The notes below the pieces were generated by a model, which was given only the letters and a program-made list of their open reading frames with translations, was not told the DNA's origin and did not search any database. A stretch of 63,714 nucleotides of DNA. It comes from Actinomycetes bacterium. GTDB taxonomy: Bacteria > Actinomycetota > Acidimicrobiia > Acidimicrobiales > Palsa-688. Location of the stretch: positions 1 to 63,714 of the forward strand of contig JAJYMM010000097.1 in the NCBI GenBank assembly GCA_021787035.1, given 5' to 3'. A program made the translations under genes and the position numbers. Below are positions 16,940 to 40,171 of this stretch, in pieces; position 1 is the first letter of the stretch; every line of letters begins with the position of its first letter.

Positions 16940-17677
16940 ATGGCAGGTGAGGGCCACCCAACCAATGACCCTGGCGTGACCAATGACCCTGGCGTGACCA
17001 ATGTCTTGCTTATCGACGACGATGCCCGCATCAGGGCATCGCTCGGGATGCTCCTGCGCAGGGACGGCTACGCCGTCTCAGAGGCCGCAAGCGGCGAGGA
17101 AGGGCTCCATGCCTTCGCTGAAGAGGGCCCCGACGTGGTCCTCGTGGACCTCCTCCTCCCAGACATGGACGGCTACGAGGTGACACGCGAGCTGCGTCGG
17201 GCAAGCAACGTCCCCGTCATCGTCATATCGGCAAGGACGGGCACCGACGACATCGTGCTCGGCCTCGAGGCGGGCGCCGACGACTACCTGACCAAGCCGG
17301 TGATGCCGCGCGAACTGCCCGCGCGCATCCGCGCGCTCATGCGCCGGGCCCAGCTGTCCGCCTCGGGTGGCACGAGCCTCACTCTCGGCGACCTCGAGAT
17401 CCTCCCCCACGCTGGCGTCGTCAAGAAGGCCGGCGTACCAGTGGCGCTCACCCGGACAGAGCTTCGCCTCCTCTGCGAGCTCGCATCCCAGCCCGGCTGG
17501 GTCCTTTCACGGGCACAGCTCCTGGAACGCGTCTGGGGTTACGACTACTTCGGCGACACCCGCCTTGTCGACGTCCACGTCGGGCGCCTCCGTACGAAGA
17601 TCGAGACCGACCCCACCAACCCCGCGCTCATCCTCACGATCAGAGGGCTCGGCTACAAGCTCGAACCGCCCCAATGA
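16940..17677 (+). CDS. mtrA: OmpR-family response regulator, MtrA ortholog
   Basis: REC domain plus a winged helix. The C-terminus LLERVWGYDYFGDTRLVDVHVGRLRTKIETDPTNPALILTIRGLGYK closely matches MtrA. An 18-bp repeat at the 5' end encodes TNDPGV twice. Confidence 0.85.
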   Translation: MAGEGHPTNDPGVTNDPGVTNVLLIDDDARIRASLGMLLRRDGYAVSEAASGEEGLHAFAEEGPDVVLVDLLLPDMDGYEVTRELRRASNVPVIVISARTGTDDIVLGLEAGADDYLTKPVMPRELPARIRALMRRAQLSASGGTSLTLGDLEILPHAGVVKKAGVPVALTRTELRLLCELASQPGWVLSRAQLLERVWGYDYFGDTRLVDVHVGRLRTKIETDPTNPALILTIRGLGYKLEPPQ

Positions 17678-19215
17678 CCCAACGACCGCGGTCCGGGCAG
17701 CGGGGCTGGCAGCGCTTCGGGCTGCGCGCTCGGGTCAGTGCCGCGTTCGCAGCGGGCGCGGCCCTCCTTTCCGCGGCCCTCGCCACGGTCACCTTCGCCG
17801 TCACCGACCACTACCTATTGGCCAGGCAGCTGCAAAACGCCGTGCACGAGACCTACGCCGACGCCCGTGTCGTCCACCGTGACCTGCTCCGGGGGGGCCC
17901 GAACATCGGCGGCGTCCTCTCGTCACTGACCGCTCCCGAGGGCACGGCCGCCTACTTGTACCAAGACCGCGAGTGGTACTCGGCGGCCATTGCGTTCGGC
18001 TACGGCCCGAGGACATCGCGCCCTGCCGGGGTCCCCCGAGCCCTCGTAGACCTCGTCAGGACCGGCCAGCCAGCGCGCCAGGAGGCCATCGTCGGGAACG
18101 AACCAGTAGTGACGGTCGGCGTTCCCCTGGACTCTGTCGGCGCGGATTTCTTCGAGGTCTACTCGCTTGCCCAGCTGTCGCACAACCTTCAGTTGCTCGC
18201 CTGGGTACTCTTCGGGTGCGCAGCAGCGACCTCCGCCGGCGGCCTCGTCGTCGGCCGGTGGGCAAGCGCCCGGTTGGTGCGACCCCTCCAAGAGATCGCC
18301 GACGTCGCTGCGGCGATCGCTGGAGGGGAGCTCGGTACCCGCCTGCCCTCGGGCGGCGGCCCCGAGATCGCAGTGCTGTCCGCGTCGTTCAACGAGATGG
18401 TCGGCGCTCTGGAGGAAAGGATCAAGCGCGACGCGCGCTTCGCGTCCGACGTGAGCCACGAGCTGCGCTCCCCGCTCACGACCATCCAGGCGGGGATAGA
18501 GGTCCTCCGCTCAGCCGAGGCCAGCCTCCCCCCCGATGCCCGAAGCGCCCTCGAGCTCCTCTCGGCAGAAGTGAGCCGCTTTTCGGCGATGGTGCAAGAC
18601 CTGCTCGAGATGTCCCGGTTCGACGCCGGCTCCCCCGGCTTGGACTTCGAGGAGCTTCGCGTCGACGAGCTCGTCGCCAGCACGGTCTCCGCCTACACAG
18701 CCAGCGCCGTCCCCGTGATCGTGGAACCCGGCGCCACGGACATGTGGGCCCTCGCCGACCGGCGCCGGCTCCAGCGCGTCCTGGTCAACCTCTTGGACAA
18801 CGCCACGGCCTACGGCGGCGGCGCCGTCGCCGTCCGCGTCGAGCGCCGTAGCGACCCGGCCCCGAGCGGAGAAGCAGCCGTCGTCGTGGAAGACGCAGGC
18901 CCGGGGGTGCCTGCGCGCGAGCGCTCGGCCATCTTCGAGCGCTTTTACCGGGGGGCCGCCGCGGGGCGCCGAGGCGCGAGCACCGGCACCGGCCTCGGCC
19001 TCGCTCTCGTAGCCGAGCACGTGAAGGCCCACGGCGGCAGGATCGAAGTCGCCGACCGCCCTGGGGGCGGGGCCCGGTTCGTGGTCCACTTACCGCTCAG
19101 CGCCGTTCCCCAGCCACCACCGCCTGAGCACGGCCAGCGGGCCGCGGAGGACACGCCACCCGAGCCGCCAAACGCACACGCCGGCGCCCCGGCAGGCGTG
19201 AGCGGGCAGGGATGA
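17674..19215 (+). CDS. mtrB: sensor histidine kinase MtrB-like
   Basis: HAMP, HisKA (SHELRSPLTTI) and HATPase_c domains. It overlaps mtrA by 4 bp. Confidence 0.85.
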   Translation: MTQRPRSGQRGWQRFGLRARVSAAFAAGAALLSAALATVTFAVTDHYLLARQLQNAVHETYADARVVHRDLLRGGPNIGGVLSSLTAPEGTAAYLYQDREWYSAAIAFGYGPRTSRPAGVPRALVDLVRTGQPARQEAIVGNEPVVTVGVPLDSVGADFFEVYSLAQLSHNLQLLAWVLFGCAAATSAGGLVVGRWASARLVRPLQEIADVAAAIAGGELGTRLPSGGGPEIAVLSASFNEMVGALEERIKRDARFASDVSHELRSPLTTIQAGIEVLRSAEASLPPDARSALELLSAEVSRFSAMVQDLLEMSRFDAGSPGLDFEELRVDELVASTVSAYTASAVPVIVEPGATDMWALADRRRLQRVLVNLLDNATAYGGGAVAVRVERRSDPAPSGEAAVVVEDAGPGVPARERSAIFERFYRGAAAGRRGASTGTGLGLALVAEHVKAHGGRIEVADRPGGGARFVVHLPLSAVPQPPPPEHGQRAAEDTPPEPPNAHAGAPAGVSGQG

Positions 19216-19243
19216 ACGACCCGCCAGGCAAGGGTGGCCCTCA

Positions 19244-19849
19244 GTGGAGAGTGGGCTTGTGAACCGCTGGCGTCGTCTCCTCGCAACAATTCTCACGGCC
19301 GCGGTCGCTGCCGGGTCCCTCGCAGGCTGCGGGGTCGGCGGACAGGGCCCACCTCGCGCGCTCGGGCGTGATTCGGTGCCCTACGGGCTGCTCGCCAGAC
19401 GGGCCAACAGGAGGGGCACCGTGCCGCGCTTCGGGTCGGTCAGGGTCACGTTGTGGCTGGAGGGCGCCAACCAGCAGCTCTCTCCCGTCAGCGCGTATGT
19501 CGCCTGGCCGGCGACGATAGGCGGCCTCCTGAACGCCCTCGCCCAAGGGCCCACCGAACGCCAGTCCGAACAAGGCCTCGTGAGCCCGGCCTCTTCGTTC
19601 GGGCCCCTCTCGAGCAGGTCCATGCGACGAGGGGTCGTACCGGTCGAGCTCCCCGCCTCCTTCGAAAACCTGAGTGGCGGGGACCAGCTCATTGCGGCGG
19701 CGCAGATCGTCTATACCGTGACGGGCTTCCCGGGGGTGCATGGCGTGACGTTTTTCCTGGCAGGCCGGCGAGCCCACGTCCCAAACGCCGTCGGCAAGCT
19801 CCTTGCTGGCCCCCTTACGCGAAAAGACTATTCATCGCTCGCCGGCTGA
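19244..19849 (+). CDS. GerMN-domain lipoprotein (LpqB N-terminal-like, short)
   Basis: Lipobox LAGC. The GerMN pattern is present (ALE.LL.GP...E...G..S..P...VDLS..F...QIVYTVTGFPGV..V.F...G). It is 201 aa, where canonical LpqB is ~580 aa. Confidence 0.65.
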   Translation: MESGLVNRWRRLLATILTAAVAAGSLAGCGVGGQGPPRALGRDSVPYGLLARRANRRGTVPRFGSVRVTLWLEGANQQLSPVSAYVAWPATIGGLLNALAQGPTERQSEQGLVSPASSFGPLSSRSMRRGVVPVELPASFENLSGGDQLIAAAQIVYTVTGFPGVHGVTFFLAGRRAHVPNAVGKLLAGPLTRKDYSSLAG

Positions 19850-20060
19850 GCCGGGGGCATCACAAAGCTGTTACAAAACTGTTGCGCGCCCCTCACAGAT
19901 TTGTGGCCGCCGCTGCTTAGGTTTCCCCATAGACGCCGGTAACGCCCCTTTTGGGCCGCGTAGTCAAATTGTCCCTCCAACTTCCTGGGGCGTAGCCAGC
20001 GCCGCAAGGCAAAACGGCTCGCAGGAGACAGAGCCCGCAGGAGACAAGGAGAGGACGGCA

Positions 20061-20777
20061 ATGTTTGTGATTGGCGCAGGGCTGCCGCGGACAGCCACCC
20101 TTACCCAAAAAATCGCACTCGAACAGCTCGGTTTCGGTCCCTGCTACCACATGGTGGAGGTGCTGGGCGACCTGAGCCGCGCCGAGCAATGGCGGGAGGC
20201 ACTCGAGGGTGACAGCAACTGGGATAAGGTCCTCCCGGGGTACAAGGCGACAGTCGACTGGCCCGGTGCCTTCTTCTACCAGGAGCTCATGGAGGCGTTC
20301 CCCGAGGCCAAGGTGCTCCTGTCCGTCAGGGACGGAGAGGCCTGGGAGCGCAGCATGGGCGAGACGATCTGGGGGATCTTCTACGGCGACACGGTGGCCC
20401 GCCACCTTTCGGACGCGAGGGCCCTGGTCGACGAGGGCTGGGCCTCCTACATGTCCCTCATGAAGGAAATGTGGGTGAAGAGCGGGCTTATGACAAGTGA
20501 GGTAGACGAGCCCGGCACCGGCTCGATGGCGCGTGCCATGGAGCGTTACAACGAAGAGGTGAAGGCCAGCGTGCCGCCCGAGCGCTTGCTTGTCTGGAAC
20601 CCGGCCGATGGGTGGGGGCCCCTCTGCGAGTTCCTCGAAGTCCCCGTACCGGTAACGCCCCTGCCTCACGTCAACGATTCGAAGTCCTTCGGGGTCATGC
20701 TTTCAGACGCAGCGCTCCGGGCCTTGAACACCTGGCGCGACAGCCAGGATTTCAGCACACTCGCCGCCCACCCGTGA
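20061..20777 (+). CDS. PAPS-dependent sulfotransferase (Sulfotransfer_4-like)
   Basis: 5'-PSB loop GLPRTAT and 3'-PB R-x7-S (RDGEAWERS). A strong AAGGAGAGG SD precedes the ATG at 20061. It is 238 aa and predicted cytoplasmic. Confidence 0.7.
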   Translation: MFVIGAGLPRTATLTQKIALEQLGFGPCYHMVEVLGDLSRAEQWREALEGDSNWDKVLPGYKATVDWPGAFFYQELMEAFPEAKVLLSVRDGEAWERSMGETIWGIFYGDTVARHLSDARALVDEGWASYMSLMKEMWVKSGLMTSEVDEPGTGSMARAMERYNEEVKASVPPERLLVWNPADGWGPLCEFLEVPVPVTPLPHVNDSKSFGVMLSDAALRALNTWRDSQDFSTLAAHP

Positions 20778-20881
20778 GCCTCGTAGGGGCAGCTCGGCCC
20801 CCAAGAAGCAAGGACAACCCCAACGCGAGCCCAGAGGCCGCTCCGGTCCCCCTTGGCGCGGGGGAGGGTAGTGGCAGCCAG

Positions 20882-23842
20882 GTCACTCGTCATGGCTGGT
20901 TGCTCGCGGTCTGTTGCATCGCGCAGTTCATGGTCATCTTGGACCTTTCGATCGTCAACGTTGCCCTGCCCTCCATCCAGTCGGCACTAGGTTTCTCGAG
21001 CACCCAGCTTCAGTGGGTCGTCGATGCTTACGCCATCGTCTTCGCCGGCTTTTTGATGCTGGGGGCTCGGGCAGCCGACCGATTCGGGCAACGACGGACC
21101 TTCGTCGTCTCGCTCGCTCTCTTCTCGTTCACGTCTTTGGCTGGCGGCCTCTCGCCAACTAGCGAGATGTTGATCGCGGCGCGCGCTTTCCAGGGCCTCT
21201 CGGGCGCACTGATGGCCGCCACCTCCCTCGCCATCATCACGGCCTCCTTCCCCGCCGGTCCCGCCCGCCACCGTGCGATCGGGTTGTGGGGTGCGATGAA
21301 CGGGGCGGGGGGCGCCGCTGGCACTCTCCTCGGAGGCATATTGACCCAAGAGCTCTCTTGGCGCTGGGTCTTGCTGATCAACCCGCCGATCGGCATCGCG
21401 GCGGCCTTGGTCGCCTACCGCGTGGTGGCCGAGCGAAAAAAGCAACGGGACCTTCCCCGTTTCGACCTGGCCGGGGCCCTCACAATGACGCTCGGCACGC
21501 TCGTGGTTGTGTACGGGATCGTCGAAACCGGCGTCGTTGGTTGGTCGTCACCCGGCGCCGTCGTCCCGATCGTGCTCGGCGTCGTGCTGCTCTCAATTTT
21601 CTGCCTCGTGGAAGCGCGTTTCGCAGTCGCTCCCCTGGTGCCTTTCCGTGAGCTGACAGGCCCGATGAAGCTGGCCAATGTCATCGTCTTGTTGTTCAGC
21701 GCGTGCTTGTTCCCAATGTGGTACGTCGGCTCGCTCTACATGCAACAAGTCCTCGGCTTGTCGCCCTTGGCCACTGGCTTCGCCTTCCTCCCCCTGACCG
21801 TCGTGATCATGGTGGTCGCCTCGCGCGCGGGGAAGCTCGTGGGCCGCTATGGCGTGCGGGCGGTGATGGGGAGCGGCCTGGTCCTGCTGGCTGCGGGCAT
21901 GTTGCTATTTGCCCGCATCGGCTCGACCGGTAGCGCCTGGGGCTACATCGTGCTCCCCGGCCTGCTCGTCGCCGCCGGCATCGCCCTGTCCGTCGTCCCC
22001 TCCACGATCTTCGCCACCCAGGTCGCCGGCCCTGCGCAAGCCGGGCTCGCGTCGGGCCTCGTAAACACGTCCCGCCAAGCCGGCGGAGGCCTCGGGCTTG
22101 CCATCTTGATCACTCTCGCCAGCCGGTCCACGAGCGCCGCCATCGGCCGCGGGACCTCAGCGCCCGTAGCACTCACTGACGGTTTCCGCCTCGCCTACCT
22201 AATCGGGGCCGGCCTAGTCGTTACGGCCGCGGCAGTCACCTTTGCCCTGGTCCACCCCCTCGCCTCGGCAGGAGGCACGGGCGGCCCGCGCCGGCACCGA
22301 CCCCTCGCGATGGCTTCCAACCCACAGTGGCGGTTCGCGTCCGTTATAGCCGCCGTGCTCATCGTCTTCGGAGCCCTCGACTTCAGCCTGGCGGGAGCGA
22401 AGGCAAGCCCGATCGGCGCTTACACGACCAAGGGTTCCTATAGCTTTGTCTCGGCCCCGGGCCTCCATCCCCCGAAGATCTCCGCCGGCGCGCCCACAAA
22501 GCTGGCAAGCCTTGCGCCCGGCTACATCATGCTCGCCAACTTTTACGACCTCACTACAAAGCCGATGCAGGGCCAGAGCGGCCCCCTCATCCTCGACAAC
22601 AACCTCCAGCCGGTGTGGTTCCGGCCGGTACCGACCGACGTTGTAGCTACCAACCTGGAGACCCAGACCTTCCAAGGCAAGCCAGCGCTCTCATGGTGGC
22701 AGGGCGTCGTGAGCAATACGGGCCAGACCGAGAGCGGCGAAGACGTCATCGTGAACGACCACTACCAGACGGTCGCCACCCTGAAGGGCCAAGGCGGTTG
22801 GGTCATAACCATGCACGAGCTCGTCATACAAGGCGACCACGCCTGGGTGACGGCCGAAAAGGATGTCCCGATGAACCTGTCGAAGTACGGCGGGACTTCC
22901 GACGGCGTGCTCGACGACGCCGCCATCCAGGAGTACAGCCTCTCCACAGGCAAGCTGCTCTACACCTGGGACGCCCTTCACCACGTCCCCCTCACCGCCT
23001 CCCATGCCCAGGCACCCGCCAACGGCTTTCCCTGGGACGCCTACCACATAAACTCCCTCGAGCTCCTGGGCAATGCCACGATGCTGGTGTCCATGCGAAA
23101 TACCTGGGCCGCCTATTTGGTGGACCAAAAGACCGGCGTCATCGACTGGGAGCTCGGCGGCAAAAACTCTAGTTTCCAAATCCCTGGCGCTGCCTCGTTC
23201 GAATGGCAACACGACGTCAGGCTGCGCTCTAACGGCGTCGTCACGATGTTTAACGACAACTGCTGCCAGATCACCGGCGCGGGCACGTACCTGGCCCCGG
23301 CGGGGCCGTCTGCCGGCCTAGAGCTGCAGTTGAACATGAAGTCACACACGGTGTCGATGCTCGCCCGCTACCAACAGCTCGACAAGCTCTCCGCCGCGTA
23401 CATGGGAGACATGGAGCCCTTGCCCAACGGCAATGTCTTCGTCGGGTGGGGTTCTCAGCCGTATTTCTCCGAGTACACGAAGTCCGGCAAGCTCTTGCTC
23501 GAAGGCACCCTACCCGGTCCAGACCTCTCTTACCGCGCTTTGCTCAAACCATGGGTAGGACTTCCCCTGTACCCACCGAGCGGTGCGGCCCGCTCCGTCA
23601 CAGGCGCTACAGATGTCTATGCGAGCTGGAACGGTGCCACCCAATTGGCCTCCTGGCGACTCTTGGCAGGGAAAGGCGCTGCGCCCCTCCATGAGGTGTC
23701 GAGCGCCCCCAAGCGCGGGTTCGAAACCGAGCTCAAACTGAAGGGCACCTACAACGTGTTCAAGCTCCAGGCGCTCGATTCCGCAGGGCACGTGATCGCA
23801 ACATCGAAGAGCTTCGGCGCCACGGCGAGTGTAAAGCCTTAG
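20882..23842 (+). CDS. DHA2-type MFS transporter (14 TMS) fused in-frame to an arylsulfotransferase(ASST)-like beta-propeller
   Basis: Continuous ORF 20612..23842. It contains an MFS domain (~20882-22300), then an internal Sec-signal-like segment (MASNPQWRFASVIAAVLIVFGALDFSLAGA from the ATG at 22310), then a ~480-aa domain. That domain shares the motifs GPLILD..PVWF, YQGKP.L.WWQG, FHINS, WQHD, GWG.QPYFSE and ASWNGAT with the two downstream paralogs. Confidence 0.65.
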   Translation, partial: VTRHGWLLAVCCIAQFMVILDLSIVNVALPSIQSALGFSSTQLQWVVDAYAIVFAGFLMLGARAADRFGQRRTFVVSLALFSFTSLAGGLSPTSEMLIAARAFQGLSGALMAATSLAIITASFPAGPARHRAIGLWGAMNGAGGAAGTLLGGILTQELSWRWVLLINPPIGIAAALVAYRVVAERKKQRDLPRFDLAGALTMTLGTLVVVYGIVETGVVGWSSPGAVVPIVLGVVLLSIFCLVEARFAVAPLVPFRELTGPMKLANVIVLLFSACLFPMWYVGSLYMQQVLGLSPLATGFAFLPLTVVIMVVASRAGKLVGRYGVRAVMGSGLVLLAAGMLLFARIGSTGSAWGYIVLPGLLVAAGIALSVVPSTIFATQVAGPAQAGLASGLVNTSRQAGGGLGLAILITLASRSTSAAIGRGTSAPVALTDGFRLAYLIGAGLVVTAAAVTFALVHPLASAGGTGGPRRHRPLAMASNPQWRFASVIAAVLIVFGALDFSLAGAKASPIGAYTTKGSYSFVSAPGLHPPKISAGAPTKLASLAPGYIMLANFYDLTTKPMQGQSGPLILDNNLQPVWFRPVPTDVVATNLETQTFQGKPALSWWQGVVSNTGQTESGEDVIVNDHYQTVATLKGQGGWVITMHELVIQGDHAWVTAEKDVPMNLSKYGGTSDGVLDDAAIQEYSLSTGKLLYTWDALHHVPLTASHAQAPANGFPWDAYHINSLELLGNATMLVSMRNTWAAYLVDQKTGVIDWELGGKNSSFQIPGAASFEWQHDVRLRSNGVVTMFNDNCCQITGAGTYLAPAGPSAGLELQLNMKSHTVSMLARYQQLDKLSAAYMGDMEPLPNGNVFVGWGSQPYFSEYTKSGKLLLEGTLPGPDLSYRALLKPWVGLPLYPPSGAARSVTGATDVYASWNGATQLASWRLLAGKGAAPLHEVSSAPKRGFETELKLKGTYNVFKLQALDSAGHVIATSKSFGATASVKP

Positions 23843-23878
23843 CGAGCTGGCAAGTAGTCCGGTACGTGGGGGGCGCCC

Positions 23879-24026
23879 GCACCTCCTGCGCCAATCCCCC
23901 TGCGCAATCCCCCTGCGCAATCCTCCGGCGCCCCCAACGGCGGCCCCCTTTAGGCTCACCCCAGGTATCTTGATGGGCCCAGCTCAAATCACCGCCAGCT
24001 CAGAGCACCGCCAGCTCAGAGCACCG
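23879..24026. repeat. two short tandem arrays (about 13-14 bp x3 at 23884-23925; 16 bp x2.5 at 23984-24026)
   Basis: Direct reading of CTGCGCAATCCCCC-type units and CACCGCCAGCTCAGAG units. Confidence 0.8.
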
Positions 24027-24182
24027 CTAGTAGCCCGGTGCCCTCGTCGTAGTCGTGTGACCGCTGCCGCTACCCGAACCACCACAAGCGGCCGTCGCAG
24101 ACGCAAGGGTCGCTAGGGCCAACCCGGCCACTAGCCAGCGCCCCAGCCTCCGCAAAAGGCCACGTACCATAAAGCTCGTCAT
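24027..24182 (-). CDS. small Gly/Ser/Thr-rich lipoprotein (51 aa), not in the ORF track
   Basis: The ATG at 24182 is preceded by GAGGAG. The peptide is MTSFMVRGLLRRLGRWLVAGLALATLASATAACGGSGSGSGHTTTTRAPGY. Signal peptide plus lipobox-like AAC. Confidence 0.35.
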   Translation of the reverse strand: MTSFMVRGLLRRLGRWLVAGLALATLASATAACGGSGSGSGHTTTTRAPGY

Positions 24183-24275
24183 GATCACTCCTCGAAAACC
24201 GCCATGGCTATGACCTAAAATCTACACCGCAGACCCCAACTTGCCCAGGCAGGTGCGCCCCGGTCGAGCCCCGCC

Positions 24276-25940
24276 TCAAGTCCCAGCTAAAGGGCGGCTC
24301 TTTAGCGCTTCTGACCGTCGCAGCACCCTGCCGTCCGGCCCGATTGCTGCCACCGCAAACCACGGCCCCGTGGCATTTACCGCGATGGCCGTCTCGAACC
24401 CCGCCCAGTCTCCCCCGCCAACGGGCTGGAGCGAAGTGGGCTCCTTGCCAGCTAGGACCACCCAACGCCGCACCTCGGTCGCACCGTTCCAGCTAGCGAA
24501 AACTTGCTTGCCGTTAGCCGGGTTGTCCAGCGCAACGGCAACGGGAGGCTCCCTAGGCGTGGCGTGCCAATCCGAAGTGAACGCCCGGTACGAGTGGTAG
24601 CCAAAGGGCATCTGCCCCTCGAGCAACAGCGCTCCTCCCGGTGCGAACTCGGAGAAGTACGGCTGGTTCCCCCAGCCTACGAACACTCGGCCGTCGGCCA
24701 GCAGCTGCACGTTGCCCTGGTTGCCGCTAAGGAAGCGAGCCGGGTTTAGGTAAGCCTTACGCAGGCTTACATGCATTGCCTTGGTGTCCACACCTAGTAT
24801 GAGCCCGCGCGACTGGCGCTCCTCCGGCGGCCAGGCGCCGTCGTCGAAGACGGTGATCACGTCTGGGCCGTGAGGCCGCGCATCGTGCTGCCAGTAGAAG
24901 TGCGCGCCTCGGCCGATACTGAAATCGGATTTTTTGCCACCGAGCCGCCAAACGACCTTGCCCGTGCTACGGTCCACTTTGTACAAGGCCCATGTGCCCA
25001 GGGACGAGATCAGCAAGTCCCCGTCGGGCATCTCGGCAATAGAGTTGATGTGGAAGTAGTCGTACTCGTCGCCTGGCGGGCCGATCTTCGTGTAGCTCTC
25101 TTCGATCCCGACATGCTTCAAGCTGTCCCAATCAAAGAGCACCTTGCCAGTCGCGATGTCGATCTCCTGCGCGTGCCCGACGATGAGCTTTCCCTTGGGT
25201 TTGCCTCCAACTGAAGAAAGATCGGCCTCCACCGCCTGGTACGCGGTGACCAGCGCGGTACCTGCCGACGTGAGCTCGAGCTCGTGAAGGTCGGCCTTCA
25301 GGCCGTCACCCGCTTGGATCTGCTGGATTCCTTGGTAACTGCTGCCCACCATCTCGCCCACACCCACGCCGTAGTCATAAACCACCTGGCCCTGCCACCA
25401 GGTGAGCACCGGCTTACCTTGATAGGACTGGACTTGCAGGTCGAAGGGTTGGGGGCCCATTGGCTGGAACCAAACGGTCCGGCCGCTCCGGTCAACGAGC
25501 ATGAGCCCATGCTGGCCGTCTGTGCCCGAGAGATATGTCCGGGGAGAAAGGACGATGTAGCTGGGCGACGAGGGAGACGCGCCATGGGCCGTCACGCTCA
25601 CCTTGGGAGGGCGCAAGTCGGGGCGCGTGATGAAGGACTCGACCTGCCCGCGCATGACGAGATCCGGGCTGATCTCCGAAGGGCCGTTTTGTGGCCTAGT
25701 TGCGCGGCCCTTAGCCGGGCTCCTGGGCCATTCGTAGCCCACAACGCCACCGACGCCCGCCAATATCAGGCCTCCTGCCGCACCTGCTGCACCGAGAAGC
25801 ACCTTGCGGCGAGAAAATCTCGGCGCGCCGCCAGCTCTCGGTCCGCGATCGGCGCCCGAGTCGCCCCACTCGTCGCCGCCTGCACCAGCATCTGTCCGTG
25901 GGCTCCCGACAAGATCCCTGTACTTGCCTTCTGTTTCCAC
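24276..25940 (-). CDS. TAT-secreted arylsulfotransferase(ASST)-like beta-propeller protein, paralog 2
   Basis: TAT-like SRRKVLLGAAGAAG. Shares the family motifs YQGKPVLTWWQG, DYFHINS, WQHDA, GWGNQPYFSEF and ASWNGATEV. Confidence 0.7.
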   Translation of the reverse strand: METEGKYRDLVGSPRTDAGAGGDEWGDSGADRGPRAGGAPRFSRRKVLLGAAGAAGGLILAGVGGVVGYEWPRSPAKGRATRPQNGPSEISPDLVMRGQVESFITRPDLRPPKVSVTAHGASPSSPSYIVLSPRTYLSGTDGQHGLMLVDRSGRTVWFQPMGPQPFDLQVQSYQGKPVLTWWQGQVVYDYGVGVGEMVGSSYQGIQQIQAGDGLKADLHELELTSAGTALVTAYQAVEADLSSVGGKPKGKLIVGHAQEIDIATGKVLFDWDSLKHVGIEESYTKIGPPGDEYDYFHINSIAEMPDGDLLISSLGTWALYKVDRSTGKVVWRLGGKKSDFSIGRGAHFYWQHDARPHGPDVITVFDDGAWPPEERQSRGLILGVDTKAMHVSLRKAYLNPARFLSGNQGNVQLLADGRVFVGWGNQPYFSEFAPGGALLLEGQMPFGYHSYRAFTSDWHATPREPPVAVALDNPANGKQVFASWNGATEVRRWVVLAGKEPTSLQPVGGGDWAGFETAIAVNATGPWFAVAAIGPDGRVLRRSEALKSRPLAGT

Positions 25941-25987
25941 CTGGCATAAGCTTACTTGGCATGAACTGCGTAGCGGCGCGTGCGTTT

Positions 25988-26004
25988 ATGCCAGATCGTG
26001 GCAT
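25988..26004. promoter_or_regulatory. 17-bp perfect palindrome ATGCCAGATCGTGGCAT in the divergent promoter between ASST paralogs 2 and 3; flanking TGGCAT direct repeats at 25942 and 25956
   Basis: Direct reading. It lies in a 91-bp divergent intergenic region. Confidence 0.5.
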
Positions 26005-26031
26005 GAGTCATAGGCAGGGCGAAGACCGGTT

Positions 26032-27618
26032 GTGAGCGTCTCAGGTAACGGCCGCTCCGCCCTTTCCCGCCGAGATTTGTTCCGGCTCGCCGGCGGTGCC
26101 GCTGGAGCAGCAGGTCTGTTTGCGGCAGCGCGTTTTGCGCCCCCCATCCTCGGCGGCGACGAGCGACACCTGCCATCGCTCCCGAGCCTCGACCACGCCC
26201 CGACGCTCGAGAGCAAGGTAAATATCTCGATCAGCACCACTCCGGCAGGGCAGATCTTGCGATTCCGGAGCCGTCCCGACCTCCAACTGGCGTTGCCGCA
26301 GTTGTCCACCGAGCTTCCTGGACAGGACCCCGGCGCCATATTGACCGACACCCACGCGGGGCCAGGTGGCCAGGGGCCGCTCATCCTCGACAGTTCGGGA
26401 CGCCAACCCGTCTGGTTCAACCAGATCTCCTTAGACGCCGACCCCTCGAAGCGTGCGTTCAACCTCCGCCTTGGGCGCTACAAGGGACAGCCGGTGCTCA
26501 GCTGGTTCGAGGGGGCGGTCGTAAACGAGCACGGCGAGGGCCACTACGTCATTACAGACTCGTCCTATTCCACGGTGAAGACTGTCCAAGCCGGAAACGG
26601 TTATGTGGGCGACCTCCACGAGTTTTTCCTGACGCCGCAAGGCACTGCGTACTTCACGTGCTTCGGCTTGGGCCACGCAGACTTGCGCCCCTACGGAGGC
26701 AGCGCGAACGGCGATTTCTACTACGGGGTAGCGCAAGAGGTCGAGGTGGACACCGGCAAGGTCCTTTTCCAGTGGAGGAGCGACCAGCACGTCAGCTTCG
26801 ACGACTCGTACTGCACGCCAAAACAATACGGCACGGAACCCTGGGACTATTTCCACATAAATGCTATTTCGCAAGACGGCAATGGTGACCTCCTTATTTG
26901 TTCTCGCAATACCTCGACGATATACAAGGTCAGCCGTTCCACGGGTGAGATAATTTACCGGATCGGTGGCAAGCGGAGCGACTTTTCTTTTGCCCCGGGC
27001 GCTCAATTTGCGTGGCAGCACGACGCAACGGCGCAGCCCGACGGGACGATAACGGTCTTCGACAACGGCGCCGGCGTCGAGGTTACCCAACCCGAGTCCC
27101 GAGCCCTCGTGCTCAACCTAAATATGTCGTCTAAGACCGTCGAGCTGTTCCACCAGTACCCACACCCCGGCGGGGCGATCTTGGCCAATGCCCTCGGCAG
27201 CGTCCAATTGCTGGAGGGTGGCCACACGTTCATCGGTTGGGGCAACCGCGGATGGTTCAGCGAAGTCGGGCCGACAGGACAGACCCTCCTAAACGGGCGC
27301 CTTGCAGGCGATACCACGCTGTCGTACCGCGCGTTCCGTTCGCCGTGGACAGCCAAGCCGCCCGAACCACCGGACATCGCCGTAGAGGCCGCGAGCCAGA
27401 CCACGACCGTGTACGCGAGCTGGAACGGCGCCACAGAGGTGGACCGCTGGGCGGTACTCGGCGGCGCGGCCAAAAACAGCCTTTCGGTCCTCGGGGTTGC
27501 ACCCAAGGCAGGGTTCGAGACACAGATAACCGTGCCAGGACGGCCGGCTCACGTCGCCATAGCGGCCCTGGACGCCGCCAGCAACGAGCTCGGCCGCTCC
27601 GGGACCCTGAAGACCTAG
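26032..27618 (+). CDS. TAT-secreted arylsulfotransferase(ASST)-like beta-propeller protein, paralog 3
   Basis: Twin-arginine signal SRRDLFRLAGGAAGAAG and the same motif set (GPLILD..PVWF, YKGQPVLSWFEG, DYFHINAIS, WQHDA, GWGNRGWFSE, ASWNGATEV). Confidence 0.7.
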   Translation: MSVSGNGRSALSRRDLFRLAGGAAGAAGLFAAARFAPPILGGDERHLPSLPSLDHAPTLESKVNISISTTPAGQILRFRSRPDLQLALPQLSTELPGQDPGAILTDTHAGPGGQGPLILDSSGRQPVWFNQISLDADPSKRAFNLRLGRYKGQPVLSWFEGAVVNEHGEGHYVITDSSYSTVKTVQAGNGYVGDLHEFFLTPQGTAYFTCFGLGHADLRPYGGSANGDFYYGVAQEVEVDTGKVLFQWRSDQHVSFDDSYCTPKQYGTEPWDYFHINAISQDGNGDLLICSRNTSTIYKVSRSTGEIIYRIGGKRSDFSFAPGAQFAWQHDATAQPDGTITVFDNGAGVEVTQPESRALVLNLNMSSKTVELFHQYPHPGGAILANALGSVQLLEGGHTFIGWGNRGWFSEVGPTGQTLLNGRLAGDTTLSYRAFRSPWTAKPPEPPDIAVEAASQTTTVYASWNGATEVDRWAVLGGAAKNSLSVLGVAPKAGFETQITVPGRPAHVAIAALDAASNELGRSGTLKT

Positions 27619-28973
27619 GCCCCAGACGGCCGGCGGCGCAAGCCGATCAGGTACATGCCGTCTGTCCCCGCCGACTGAGGTAGGAGCAACGCCCCTGGCC
27701 CGAGGGGCTCCCACGGTGGCCCAGGCGGCGGCAGTATCTCCCATCCGGGAACTAGCCGGGCTGCGAGCCACTGCCCGACGCCTGAGGTTTCTTCCTTCGT
27801 GAGAGTGCAAACGCTGTAAGCGATCAGCCCACCGGGCGCGACGAGGGGGACCGCCGCGGCGAGGAGCCGCCTCTGGAGACCTGCCAAGCGGGCAACGTCC
27901 TCAGGGCGCACCCGCCAGCGGGCGTCCGGGCGGCGCCGGAGGACGCCCAAGCCGCTGCAGGGAGCATCGACCAGGACCGCGCCGAAGCTGCCCGGGCGGA
28001 ACGGGGGTGCAGCGCCGTCTGCTACGACCGGGCCCAGGTTGGAGAGCCCGAGGCGTGCCGCGTTTGCCGCCACCACACGGGACCGCGCCGCCGAGAGGTC
28101 GCCGGCGACGACGAAGGGTGCGTGGGCCGCCAGAAGGGTGGCCTTGCCGCCCGGAGCAGCGCACATGTCGAAAACTGAGCGGCCTCTCCCGCACCCTGTC
28201 GCTCCCCCGGGTGCGGTGCCAACGCGCTCGTCCGCCCAGCGCGCGACCTGCTCCCCGACGGCTTGGCTTCCGGGGTCCTGGACGTAGCCGTCGTCCCTCT
28301 TCGACACGACGGCGGCCTCGTCCATTTTTGCGAGCGCAGCCAGGGCTCGTTCACGCCCGAGGTCGGCTGACAAGCGCCGTAGTACCCAGTCGGGATAACT
28401 GAGGCGGGTTCCCGCATCGGGCCACTGGACTGGGCCAGCCGCGACGAGCTCGCCTACCCGGCGGAGCACGGCGTTTAGGAGCGGCCGGGCGCGCCTCGGA
28501 CAAAGGTCGACCGCTTCGGAGACGGCGGCGTAAGGCGGGACCCGCATGAAGGCGAGCTGGTAACAACCCGTACGGGCAGCAGCACGCACAATTGGTTCGA
28601 GCTCGCCACGGGCGAACCTCGCTATAAGCCAGTCACACGCGCGCTGCATCCGGACAGCGCCGTAAACGAGCTCGGTGGCGAAGGAGCGGTCCCGTTCGTC
28701 GAGCGACGAAGCGGCGAGCAGGCGGGGCAGGATCTCGTTCGCGCGCTCGCCGGCGTCAACGGCCACGAGAGCCGCGACGGCTAGCCCCCTGGCCGTGCCG
28801 GCAAGCCGAACATCGAGCTCGGCCCCCCGGTACTGGGAACCGCCGCGCTGGGAACCACCGCGCTGGGAACCGCCGCGCTGGGAACCGCCGCGCTGGGAAC
28901 CGCCGCGCTGGGAACCGCCGCGCTGGGGGATTTTTCGTTCGGGGCCGGTTGGCTGCGCGGCGATCTCTCTCAC
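27615..28973 (-). CDS. rsmB: 16S rRNA (cytosine967-C5)-methyltransferase RsmB/Sun
   Basis: NusB-like N-terminal domain plus a methyltransferase core (FDMCAAPGGKAT...VLVDAPCSG...AYSVCT). A GTG start at 28973 forms a GTGA overlap with the fmt stop. ORF 27615..29018 extends further upstream. Confidence 0.85.
   Translation of the reverse strand: MREIAAQPTGPERKIPQRGGSQRGGSQRGGSQRGGSQRGGSQRGGSQYRGAELDVRLAGTARGLAVAALVAVDAGERANEILPRLLAASSLDERDRSFATELVYGAVRMQRACDWLIARFARGELEPIVRAAARTGCYQLAFMRVPPYAAVSEAVDLCPRRARPLLNAVLRRVGELVAAGPVQWPDAGTRLSYPDWVLRRLSADLGRERALAALAKMDEAAVVSKRDDGYVQDPGSQAVGEQVARWADERVGTAPGGATGCGRGRSVFDMCAAPGGKATLLAAHAPFVVAGDLSAARSRVVAANAARLGLSNLGPVVADGAAPPFRPGSFGAVLVDAPCSGLGVLRRRPDARWRVRPEDVARLAGLQRRLLAAAVPLVAPGGLIAYSVCTLTKEETSGVGQWLAARLVPGWEILPPPGPPWEPLGPGALLLPQSAGTDGMYLIGLRRRPSGA
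28833..28927. repeat. 15-bp tandem repeat x6 (CTGGGAACCGCCGCG) in the rsmB N-terminus
   Basis: Direct reading. It encodes the in-frame sequence (QRGGS)6. Confidence 0.9.
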
Positions 28974-29941
28974 GCCCCGAGACGTTCCCCGGGCACGGGC
29001 CGCGTGCCTCGCAGCCAATCGGGCACCGCCAGCGGTGCCTTTCCTTCGGGCTGCACGACCAACAGCTGCAGCGTACCGGCACCCGTCCCCACCAGGTCAC
29101 CCGCGAGCTCGCCAGGCTCAAGGGCAATTGCAGGAGCTCCAGCGCCCGGGGTTGAGCCGGCGCGTATTGAGCCGGCGCGTATTGAGCCGGCGGGCACGGG
29201 GGTTTCTGCTTGGCAGCGGCCGCCATCCGCGCCCGAGTCATGGTCCACCAGCCGGGCCCGATGGACGATCAGGCGCCGGCCCCGCCAAGTGGTCCATGCC
29301 CTGCCAACCCTCACGGCGCGGAGGCAAACCTCCGCCGGCAGCTCAAAGTCCAGCCGGAGCTCCGAAGGATCGACCTTGTTGGCATAACTAGGCTCGCCAA
29401 CTTGGGCCACGGGCTCTGGAAAACCTTGGCTGAGGGCGCCAAGCAGCATCTCGGTCCCCAGGTCACCGAGGCGACCACGCAGCTCCGTCACCGTTTCCTC
29501 GGGCCCTATGCTTACGGCCCGACAGGCAAAAATAGGGCCGGTGTCCAAGCCCTCTTCCAGCTTCATCAAGCAAACACCGGTCTCTTTGTCGCCGGCCAGC
29601 ACAGCCCTCTCCACCGGTGCCGCACCCCGCCAGCGCGGCAGGAGGGAGAAGTGGACATTGACCATCGGCACCTTCTCGAGCACGTCCGGCTTGATGATGC
29701 GCCCGTAGGCAACGACCACCCCAAGCTCGGCGCCCGAACCCACCACCGCGGCCGCATCGTAGGAGACGGGAAGGCCGAGCTCGGCCGCCACGACCTTCAC
29801 TGGGCTCGGCCCAAGCTCCCCTCCTCGGCCCCGGCGTGCGTCCCGCCTGGTCACCACCACGCGAACATCGTGGCCCGCGCCAACTATCGACCGAAGTGTC
29901 GCGGCCGCGACCGTAGGGGTGCCTAGGAAGGCGAGGTGCAA
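28970..29941 (-). CDS. fmt: methionyl-tRNA formyltransferase
   Basis: Motifs FLGTP...HFSLLPRWRGAAP...GVCLMKLEEGLDTGPI. Confidence 0.9.
   Translation of the reverse strand: MHLAFLGTPTVAAATLRSIVGAGHDVRVVVTRRDARRGRGGELGPSPVKVVAAELGLPVSYDAAAVVGSGAELGVVVAYGRIIKPDVLEKVPMVNVHFSLLPRWRGAAPVERAVLAGDKETGVCLMKLEEGLDTGPIFACRAVSIGPEETVTELRGRLGDLGTEMLLGALSQGFPEPVAQVGEPSYANKVDPSELRLDFELPAEVCLRAVRVGRAWTTWRGRRLIVHRARLVDHDSGADGGRCQAETPVPAGSIRAGSIRAGSTPGAGAPAIALEPGELAGDLVGTGAGTLQLLVVQPEGKAPLAVPDWLRGTRPVPGERLGA
29152..29195. repeat. 15-bp tandem repeat x~3 (TTGAGCCGGCGCGTA) inside the fmt C-terminal region
   Basis: Direct reading. It encodes the in-frame sequence AGSIRAGSIRAGS. Confidence 0.85.
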
Positions 29942-38326: not shown

Positions 38327-38499
38327 AAGGCGCTCGAGGTGGAGCCAAGGCGGGGGGGCTGGCCCCTGCCAGGGGTTCGGACGAGGACGAGGGCCAAGCG
38401 CCGCCTGTTGACGGAGCGCCAGAGCCGGCCTGCCGACCTGGTCGTGGTCTCAATTTGGCGTTGCCGGTGCCGAAGGGGCCCCAACGCACGAGTAGGATC

Positions 38500-38600
38500 C
38501 CCTGCGGGCCGTTACTGGCGCTTACGTGGTAACCACGAGGGAGCGGCCCGCCGGCACGGCCTGCCCGCCGGCCAAGCCGCACGCCTGGGCGTCCCGAGCA
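38500..38600 (+). ncRNA. putative ZTP (pfl-motif) riboswitch in the glyA leader
   Basis: GGGCCGUUACUGGCG at 38506-38520 against consensus GGGUCGUGACUGGCG. The downstream pseudoknot element CGCCUGGGCG lies at 38582-38591, about 45 nt before the glyA ATG. glyA is a classic ZTP regulon member. Confidence 0.5.
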
Positions 38601-38635
38601 GACTACGACCGCACGACCGCGACCAGGAGGACGCC

Positions 38636-40171
38636 ATGTCACAAGCCAGCAACGCTCAGACCTCAACGAACGCCGTTTCGGATGGAGGCGCAGCAGCTAC
38701 GGGCGAAAGCGAGGCGATCGCCGCCAACACCCGAGGCCCCTGGCCTGCCACAGCAACAGCGACTGCCATTGCCTACACCAACGCGCTCGAGGTCATAGCT
38801 GCCACGGAGCCCGACGTCGCGGCAGCCATCAGAGGCGAGCTCGAGAACCAGCGCCGTCAGCTGAAGCTCATTGCCTCAGAGAACTACGCCTCGCCTGCGG
38901 TCCTGCTCGCCATGGGCAACTGGCTCTCAGACAAGTACGCAGAGGGCACGCCCGGGCACCGCATGTACGCCGGCTGCGAGATGGTCGACCGAGTCGAGAC
39001 GCTGGCGGCAGGCCATGCTATTGCCCTCTTTGGCGCTGAGCACGCCTACGTCCAGCCCCATTCGGGCATCGACGCCAACCTCGTCGCCTACTGGGCGATC
39101 CTTGCCAAACGAGTGGAAGCGCCCGCTTTGGAGGAGGCCGGCGCCAAGCACGTGAACGACCTGCCTGCTGACGCCTGGGACCACCTCCGCCACTCTTTCA
39201 ACGAGCAACGGATGCTTGGCATGTCATTGGACGCCGGCGGCCACCTGACCCACGGGTTCCGCCCGAACATCTCGGGCAAGCTGTTCAACCAGGCGAGCTA
39301 CGGCGTCGACCCCGAGAGCGGCCTGATCGACTACGACGCCCTCGCCCGACAGGCGCGCGAGTGGCGCCCGCTCGTGCTGGTCGGCGGTTACTCGGCATAC
39401 CCCCGCAACCCCAACTTCGCTCTCATGGCCGAGATCGCCGAAGAAGTGGGCGCTACCTTCATGGTCGACATGGCCCACTTCGCGGGCCTGGTGGCCGGCA
39501 AGGTGCTGACAGGCGACTTCGACCCCGTCCCGCACGCTGGCGTCGTCACCTCGACCACCCACAAGTCGCTCCGCGGGCCGAGGGGCGGGTTGGTGCTCTG
39601 CAAAGGCGAGTACGCGCCCTTCGTCGACAAGGGCTGCCCCATGGTGCTCGGCGGCCCGCTTCCCCACGTGATGGCGGCCAAGGCGGTGGCGCTGGCTGAA
39701 GCTCGCCGGTCTTCGTTCGCCGATTACGCGGCAGCGATAGTCGCCAACGCCCGCGCCCTCGCCGAGGGCTTTTCGCGCCGCGGGGTCAAGCTCGTCACGG
39801 GCGGCACGGACAACCACATAGTCCTGATGAACGTCGAGGCGAGCTTCGGGCTAACGGGCCGCCAGGCGGAGTCGGCGCTCCTCGACTCCGGCGTTGTCAC
39901 CAACCGCAACTCCGTTCCCTCTGACCCAAACGGAGCGTGGTACACCTCCGGCGTAAGGATGGGCACGCCGGCTCTCACCACGCTCGGCTTCGGCGCGGAC
40001 GAGCTCGACGAGGTGGCTGACGTCATCGCGGAAGCCCTCCGGGCGACCCAACCCGCCTCGGGGACCTCGAAGGCCAAGTACATGATCGACGCCAAGGTGG
40101 CAGAGCGCTGCCGGGGGCGCTGCACCGACCTCCTCGCGGCCCACCCCCTTTACCCTGAGATCGAGCTCTAG
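38636..40171 (+). CDS. glyA: serine hydroxymethyltransferase
   Basis: PLP motifs are present (ASENY...[12 protein letters not shown]). The ATG at 38636 follows a CCAGGAGGA SD. The 5' 99 codons of ORF 38339..40171 are leader. Confidence 0.9.

Follow-up and report, generated by a model that had tools for sequence, protein, structure and literature searches.

A sulfation locus with an exporter-arylsulfotransferase fusion gene in Acidimicrobiales, and a possible two-step sulfation relay across the membrane

Described sulfation systems and the present locus

The closest described counterpart of the genes considered here comes from the biosynthesis of the liponucleoside antibiotic caprazamycin. In PMC4257720, Cpz8 is described as sulfating triketide pyrones in a 3'-phosphoadenosine 5'-phosphosulfate (PAPS)-dependent reaction, after which the products serve as sulfate donors for the PAPS-independent arylsulfate sulfotransferase (ASST) Cpz4; the same paper, citing Tang 2013, presents Cpz8, Cpz6, and Cpz4 as a two-step sulfation. 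Cpz6 is the type III polyketide synthase (PKS) that makes the triketide-pyrone carrier. For most bacterial ASSTs the natural donors, acceptors, and roles are unknown (PMC13426309). Here we analyze a sulfation locus of four genes, three on the plus strand and one on the minus strand, at positions 20061-27618 of contig JAJYMM010000097.1 from an Acidimicrobiales genome (assembly GCA_021787035.1); the whole stretch of 63,714 nt (63.7 kb) is referred to as the window. An earlier note on this DNA had placed a cytoplasmic sulfotransferase, a transporter running into an ASST-like propeller, and two further ASST paralogs in this interval, and matches to Pfam and NCBIfam profiles confirm the four genes at these places. 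We read the locus as encoding a membrane-spanning two-step sulfation relay, an interpretation on which our judgment is evenly balanced.

Structures from the caprazamycin pathway provide the reference points. PDB entries 9KF4 and 9KF6 are titled 'Streptomyces sp. sulfotransferase Cpz4 involved in caprazamycin synthesis', and the sequence of 9KF4 is identical to a protein of Streptomyces sp. SID7499 and shares 83% identity with the aryl sulfotransferase of Streptomyces sp. SANK 60405, which produces A-90289. The SID7499 locus (L169) is a caprazamycin-type cluster encoding a type III PKS, a member of the inositol-phosphatase family, a 212-aa Sulfotransfer_4 protein, a serine hydroxymethyltransferase (SHMT), and TauD; the 212-aa protein is identical in sequence to PDB 9KF1 and, judged by gene position, is probably Cpz8. 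The Cpz4 orthologue of this locus (L169 10001-11476) and a probable LipB (P0243) have N-terminal signal peptides (STRRALTLLVGAVLALALGNAPGASA) and, therefore, the last step of liponucleoside sulfation may also occur outside the cytoplasm.

Both enzyme families of the caprazamycin and A-90289 systems recur in the window, with their logical order kept. Its propellers are Cpz4-like, and its free paralogs carry putative export signals, as the Cpz4 and LipB homologues carry N-terminal signal peptides. However, neither a type III PKS nor a phosphatase for 3'-phosphoadenosine 5'-phosphate is found among its annotated or scanned genes, whereas L169 has the type III PKS; the genes lie outside any biosynthetic cluster; one ASST is covalently joined, by way of an additional helix, to a DHA2 exporter; there are several ASST paralogs here, and sulfatases in related loci; and gene sets of this type are widespread in uncultured Acidimicrobiales and Solirubrobacterales. 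The Escherichia coli ASST (PDB 3ELQ, PF05935) resembles the window proteins in its beta-propeller, its aligned active-site residues, and its extracytoplasmic place, but identity is only about 15% and the window proteins score far higher on PF14269 than on PF05935; the E. coli enzyme is not known to be linked to a PAPS-dependent enzyme or a transporter. With the DHA2 (EmrB/QacA-type) drug:H+ antiporters the fusion protein has in common a sequence like that of the MFS_1 (major facilitator superfamily, MFS) and TIGR00711 models, 14 helices, and motif A, but it falls below the TIGR00711 cut-off and carries a 15th helix and an enzyme domain of about 480 aa that is predicted to be extracytoplasmic.

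A search of the literature on PF14269, PF17784, MFS-ASST fusions, and ASSTs in Acidimicrobiales or Solirubrobacterales found nothing relevant. The arrangement had been put forward as new, and this holds for part of it: the supply of an ASST by a PAPS-dependent enzyme has been published for Cpz8/Cpz6/Cpz4 (PMC4257720), whereas, by our search, the exporter-ASST fusion, the arrays of ASSTs and sulfatases, the frequent linkage to PAPS synthesis, and the setting outside biosynthetic clusters in uncultured soil actinobacteria appear undescribed.

The four proteins and their predicted activities

The first gene (20061..20777, plus strand) begins 9 nt 3' of a ribosome-binding site recognized from sequence (AAGGAG, 20046..20051, plus strand) and encodes a 238-aa protein in which no signal peptide was found. 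The protein matches the Sulfotransfer_4 model (PF17784, the Cpz8/SgdX2 type) over profile positions 2-215 of 215 (E 1.3e-61, 208.6 bits against a cut-off of 22.8). Its PDB matches include SgdX2 (8Y9P, E 5.5e-41), 9KF1 (E 2.7e-39), and the schistosome sulfotransferase SULT-OR (4MUA, E 6e-24), and it is 36% identical to the 212-aa protein of the caprazamycin-type cluster (E 7e-47). The PAPS-binding elements are intact, as the earlier note had it: the 5'-phosphosulfate-binding loop IGAGLPRTAT occupies residues 4-13, the 3'-phosphate-binding R-x7-S motif corresponds to R90...S98, both (the loop as GAGLPRTAT) show no variation in 23 homologues, and they align with their counterparts in the solved PAPS-dependent homologues 8Y9P, 9KF1, and 5TIZ. 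The gene product is probably a PAPS-dependent sulfotransferase of the cytoplasm.

The TGA stop codon of this gene is overlapped by the likely GTG start codon of the next at position 20774 (GTGA). The second gene (20774..23842, plus strand) encodes a protein of 1022 aa in which a DHA2-type MFS domain (residues ~37-493, 20882..22252), an additional transmembrane helix (residues 521-539, 22334..22390), and a Cpz4-type ASST propeller (residues 557-1013, 22442..23812) follow each other in a single open reading frame (ORF) with no stop codon between the MFS and ASST parts. The MFS part matches MFS_1 (E 7e-51, 173.5 bits against a cut-off of 33.4), and its best NCBIfam match is the DHA2/EmrB model TIGR00711 (E 4e-62), which at 210.5 bits stays below the cut-off of 230.2; the top-scoring relatives are the efflux pumps EmrB, LmrA, and TcmA. 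The propeller matches Arylsulfotran_2 (PF14269) with an E value of 1.3e-39. The full-length architecture is present in >120 database clusters at 61-75% identity and in 80 genome loci, and we, therefore, rejected the possibility that the fusion is a frameshift or assembly artifact. Public annotation describes these proteins merely as 'MFS transporter' or 'EmrB/QacA', and all ten fusion clusters that were inspected for a cultured host derive from metagenomes or metagenome-assembled genomes (MAGs).

Hydropathy and the DSSP assignment of an AlphaFold model place 14 MFS helices before residue 493, followed by the extra helix at residues 521-539. The model of the full 1022-aa protein, built with 25 close homologues, has a pLDDT of 57 and a pTM of 0.46 and was used for counting helices only. 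Motif A (GARAADRFGQRR) lies between MFS helices 2 and 3, alternate loops rich in Lys and Arg lie on the same side, and helix 15 (hydropathy 2.27) is preceded by the Arg-rich loop GPRRHRPLAMASNPQWR; helix 15 and the positive loop before it are found in 25 of 25 aligned fusions. Because of the positive-inside rule, the count of 14 + 1 helices, and the Arg-rich, cytoplasmic loop ahead of helix 15, the fused propeller is predicted to face the outside of the membrane. The description of this gene in the earlier note as a 14-helix DHA2 transporter continuing into an ASST stands as to the single ORF and the 14 helices but had missed the 15th helix, and the DHA2 model is matched only below its cut-off.

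The two further ASST genes lie downstream of the fusion. Paralog 2 (24276..25940, minus strand; maximal ORF of 554 aa, called as 495 aa by public gene callers) is convergent to the fusion gene and divergent to paralog 3 (26032..27618, plus strand, 528 aa). As had been claimed for all three propellers, they match ASST profiles, scoring 136.8 (fusion), 176.9 (paralog 2), and 149.7 bits (paralog 3) against the PF14269 cut-off of 27; the E values for PF14269 and PF05935 are 8e-52 and 2.4e-13 for paralog 2 and 1.6e-43 and 1e-18 for paralog 3. The propellers are overall 35-37% identical to Cpz4 (P0241), the fused one reaching 37% (E 7e-85), and paralog 3 matches 9KF4/9KF6 with an E value of 8e-93; a profile of 11 propellers reaches E 4e-153. 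An AlphaFold model of paralog 3 (pLDDT 91.9) compared by Foldseek superimposes on 9KF6 and 9KF4 with TM scores of 0.92 and 0.91 (root-mean-square deviation of 1.8 A to Cpz4), and on the E. coli ASST with a TM score of 0.58 (E 4e-13).

In an alignment of hidden Markov models (HMMs), the E. coli ASST residues H356, N358, and R374 correspond to a conserved H-x-N...R pattern, and the sulfo-histidine H436 (TQH436T) corresponds to the His of a WQHD motif (the active-site residues of the E. coli enzyme are named in PMC13426309). The WQHD histidine is present in all three window propellers and is invariant in three family alignments (A1, A2, and A4). The H-x-N and Arg segments read YHINS...SMRNT in the fusion and FHINA...CSRNT in paralog 3, which has a complete active site. 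Among 25 fusions there is no variation at H681, H758, N760, R775, and H813-D814. The propellers are, by prediction, PAPS-independent ASSTs of the Cpz4 clade. Just past the catalytic WQHD...FDD segment of the fusion, a loop (DDHCCQLTGGGTY) holds a vicinal Cys-Cys pair at residues 830-831 (~23261-23266) that is invariant in alignment A1; this pair occurs in fused propellers and a few free paralogs, is absent from most free ASSTs, and may set their donor site apart.

Both free paralogs of the window carry a twin-arginine translocation (Tat)-type motif of the form S-R-R-x-[VL]-[LF], retained in their orthologues, and an uncharged hydrophobic region rich in Gly and Ala (FSRRKVLLGAAGAAGG, LSRRDLFRLAGGAAGAAG). 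Paralog 2 has FSRRKVLL ahead of its hydrophobic stretch, and paralog 3 has LSRRDLFRL within the Tat-like signal LSRRDLFRLAGGAAGAAGLFAAA. They had been described as two twin-arginine ASST paralogs; family and motifs agree with this, but the Tat model TIGR01409 is not significant on either signal and Pfam gives no match there, and paralog 2 proved to be on the minus strand. Because of the TIGR01409 result, the Tat assignment is kept at the level of the motif. Across the family the consensus is TRRxFL (23 of 43 free members); many members have a lipobox Cys and the rest have Sec-like signals. The free paralogs of L010, L014, L019, and other Solirubrobacterales are mostly 600-680 aa long; between the signal anchor or lipobox and the propeller they have an additional N-terminal module of ~150 aa that is conserved (GSxSGxHxGxLxxYSxGxGxSFxPxxPFxxGExV).

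Gene linkage in related genomes and the readings of the locus

Two sets of related loci were collected. The first contains 80 full-length fusion loci from species-representative genomes (58-73% identity), kept from ~600 raw scan hits that were found by MFS-domain patterns and possibly include plain MFS genes; nearly all are from Solirubrobacterales and Acidimicrobiales MAGs of soil, bog, fen, and palsa, with Stordalen and SPRUCE as peat sites of origin. The reverse set contains 80 metagenome loci with Sulfotransfer_4 relatives (52-89% identity), many on short contigs. The genes are co-conserved elsewhere, a point that the earlier note had named as a check. A Sulfotransfer_4 gene lies within 10 kb of the fusion in 21 of the 80 fusion loci, and directly 5' of it in all seven Acidimicrobiales-type loci (7/7); in the reverse direction, 18 loci are informative because they extend 2.5 kb or more to each side, and the fusion adjoins Sulfotransfer_4 in 11 of them; at an identity of 57% or more it does so in 9 of 12. 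The overlap of sulfotransferase stop and fusion start recurs in the distant genomes L086, L092, and L108, and in L086 the order is sulfotransferase, overlapping fusion, and sulfatase.

One to five extra ASST paralogs accompany the fusion in 68 of the 80 loci, a PF00884 sulfatase with a Tat signal and a CSPAR motif in 28, and APS (adenosine 5'-phosphosulfate) kinase or CysNC in 11. The linked sulfatase is of the Cys type (PF00884 E 3e-35), and its signal passes the TIGR01409 cut-off (18.9 bits vs 16.7). APS kinase also adjoins the sulfotransferase in 15 of the 80 metagenome loci and lies directly upstream of it in L088, where the order is APS kinase, sulfotransferase, a small gene, fusion, BBE oxidase, and laccase-type multicopper oxidase. 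CysD and CysNC stand beside the fusion in L052 (14746-16370), L054 (14078-16093), and L063 (12977-15007), with no Sulfotransfer_4 gene within 10 kb; these loci may be served by a different PAPS-dependent sulfotransferase. Unbiased clustering of the neighbors in the 160 related loci revealed no further recurrent partner.

In the relay that we propose, the cytoplasmic Sulfotransfer_4 enzyme would use PAPS to sulfate a small phenolic molecule, the carrier, and the product of the overlapping gene would export the resulting aryl sulfate through its DHA2-type MFS domain. The outer propeller, tethered by helix 15, would receive the sulfuryl group on its catalytic histidine (WQHD), and the fused propeller together with the exported paralogs would hand it to acceptors outside, where PAPS is absent; environmental phenolics or envelope glycans are possible acceptors. 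Both enzyme types of the window are homologous to the biochemically established Cpz pair, the ASST family is exported in general, and genes for PAPS synthesis (APS kinase, CysD, CysNC) are found inside the module of related loci. Actinobacteria usually assimilate sulfate through APS reductase and, therefore, PAPS would be made for sulfation.

A relay across the envelope had been suggested in the earlier note, and we find it partly supported: of the three outcomes that the note gave as refuting it, none was observed. It is in keeping with the profile matches and catalytic histidines of the propellers, the PAPS-binding residues of the sulfotransferase, the co-conservation of the genes, and the predicted outside position of the fused enzyme; it fits the homology, the translational coupling, the linkage to PAPS genes, and the topology. 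The direction of transport, the cargo, and the acceptors are putative: we infer that the MFS domain is an exporter, that it carries what the sulfotransferase makes, and that this compound is the donor for the ASSTs.

Several observations weigh against the relay. Genes for PAPS supply, named as a check in the earlier note, are linked in related loci as described, but no cysC, cysN, or cysD is found among the annotated or scanned genes of the 63.7-kb window. Nor is a gene for carrier synthesis, a type III PKS or other, found in the window or recurrent in the 160 related loci. Sulfotransfer_4 is within 10 kb in only 21 of the 80 fusion loci. Export is the direction suggested by family resemblance only, with the TIGR00711 match below its cut-off, and proton coupling of the putative export is likewise taken from the best-scoring relatives, EmrB, LmrA, and TcmA. 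The reactions of ASSTs are reversible and, therefore, environmental aryl sulfates could be donors. Catabolism or scavenging would account at least equally well for the exported sulfatases, which are found in 28 of 80 loci. Finally, the catalytic histidine, whose conservation the earlier note had named as a check, is present in all three propellers, but at residues ~315-320 of the 554-aa ORF paralog 2 has SSLGT in place of S[AS]RNT, so that Leu-Gly replaces Arg-Asn at the site of E. coli R374. The Arg is kept in 178 of 180 family domains; because SSLGT is identical in four independent assemblies, the change is real, and paralog 2, whose orthologues in L006, L012, and L118 share 55-60% identity with it, may be inactive or of altered chemistry. 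The earlier note had proposed that three paralogs would widen the range of acceptors; one of the three has thus lost an active-site Arg.

Some of these observations are what would be expected if the locus served to process organosulfates and phenolics from the environment independently of PAPS. Aryl sulfates and phenols of soil or peat would then be the substrates of the exported ASSTs and sulfatases, for sulfur scavenging or phenol modification, the MFS domain would import or expel the phenolic partner, and the sulfotransferase would be an occasional accessory. The ASST arrays (1-5 paralogs in 68/80 loci), the Tat-signal sulfatases (28/80), the 59 of 80 fusion loci without a nearby Sulfotransfer_4 gene, the origin of the source MAGs in bog, fen, palsa, and soil, and the laccase-type multicopper oxidase and BBE oxidase adjoining in L088 all agree with such a role. 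However, it leaves unexplained why the PAPS-type enzyme is translationally coupled to the fusion and why APS kinase, CysD, and CysNC recur in the module, and the DHA2 relatives of the transporter are efflux pumps. We judge this explanation unlikely, though deserving of serious weight.

Detoxification in the manner of phase II and phase III metabolism is another explanation, in which the sulfotransferase would sulfate incoming toxic phenolics, the MFS domain would expel the conjugates, and the ASSTs outside would just redistribute or recycle sulfuryl groups with no dedicated carrier. The lack of a conserved gene for carrier biosynthesis is as expected here, the MFS is of an efflux type, the habitats are rich in phenolics, and relatives of the sulfotransferase act on xenobiotics, as the schistosome oxamniquine sulfotransferase does. 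But a conjugate exporter has no obvious need for a fused transferase whose active site is invariant in 25 fusions, nor for up to five extra ASSTs, and we regard this role as decidedly improbable. That the genes tailor a single secreted natural product in the style of caprazamycin or A-90289, with the biosynthetic cluster elsewhere in the genome, is very improbable: Cpz4 and LipB, the only characterized members of this ASST clade, both do such tailoring, but the window is housekeeping DNA with no PKS, nonribosomal peptide synthetase, or sugar-tailoring genes among those annotated or scanned, and the module occurs with changing neighbors in dozens of MAG species (58-73% identity over the 80 loci).

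Genomic setting and wider meaning

The genes flanking the locus are housekeeping genes, including menaquinone genes, dnaE, rpe, an mtrAB-like pair, def, fmt, rsmB, glyA, and iol genes. The window aligns to contigs of Acidimicrobiales-type MAGs, among them L002 (GCA_027371995.1), in which the call of the fusion gene (20774..23842) is identical, and close homologues carry the label Acidimicrobiales. The G+C content is 64-71% across the window and falls to 0.636-0.651 at positions 20001-28000, compared with 0.68-0.70 in the flanks, that is, 4-5 points lower. Because of the synteny with other Acidimicrobiales loci, this stretch is not treated as a recent insertion, and a recently acquired horizontal island was set aside as an explanation: the order histidine kinase, Germane-domain gene, sulfotransferase, and fusion is common to L005 and in part to L009.

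Directly 5' of the sulfotransferase (16940-19849) are genes for a response regulator, a histidine kinase, and a short lipoprotein with a Germane domain, a set that resembles mtrA-mtrB-lpqB with a very short LpqB; a regulatory tie between these two-component genes and the sulfation genes is possible. The intergenic stretch that separates the fusion from paralog 2 (23843-24275) holds a 53-aa ORF (24027-24188, minus strand) for which the Pfam scan gave no match; its N-terminus resembles that of a secreted protein or lipoprotein (LASATAAC GGSGSGSG), and it has a ribosome-binding site similar to GAGGAG. Two short tandem repeats also lie there, one at 23885-23931 (13 nt x 3.5) and one at 23979-24027 (16 nt x 3.1). 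The RsmB-like gene next to paralog 3 (27615-29018, minus strand) contains a 15-nt tandem repeat at 28833-28927 (6.3 copies, 97% matches) that encodes a (GGSQR)n stretch in the N-terminus of the 16S rRNA methyltransferase-like protein; the protein has 457 aa in L001 and 432 aa in L002 and, therefore, the number of repeats may differ among strains. At 38339-40171 (plus strand) a maximal ORF of 610 aa has an SHMT domain whose match is split in two, with the best stretch beginning at residue 289, and no identical protein is on record for this ORF; the true start is probably internal, or else there is a frameshift.

For ASSTs, a transporter-enzyme fusion with genetic ties both to a PAPS-dependent enzyme and to the synthesis of PAPS offers a concrete, testable pathway. 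We would extend the relay to many soil and peat Actinomycetota only tentatively and with some doubt: in them, a diffusible aryl sulfate, charged from PAPS in the cell, released by the exporter straight into the fused transferase, and then used by a set of exported ASSTs, would provide a general route of extracytoplasmic sulfation whose targets would be envelope polymers or environmental phenolics. The findings flag as bifunctional hundreds of database proteins now labeled 'MFS transporter' or 'EmrB/QacA', and they would turn two-step sulfation as known for caprazamycin from a feature of a single antibiotic pathway into a trait common among uncultured actinobacteria of soil and peat, a distribution that bears on the turnover of organic sulfur and phenolics. 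If true, the relay would explain how cells that have no PAPS-containing outer compartment carry out sulfation outside the membrane, and it would give the ASST family a defined physiological function and represent a new kind of extracytoplasmic group-transfer relay.

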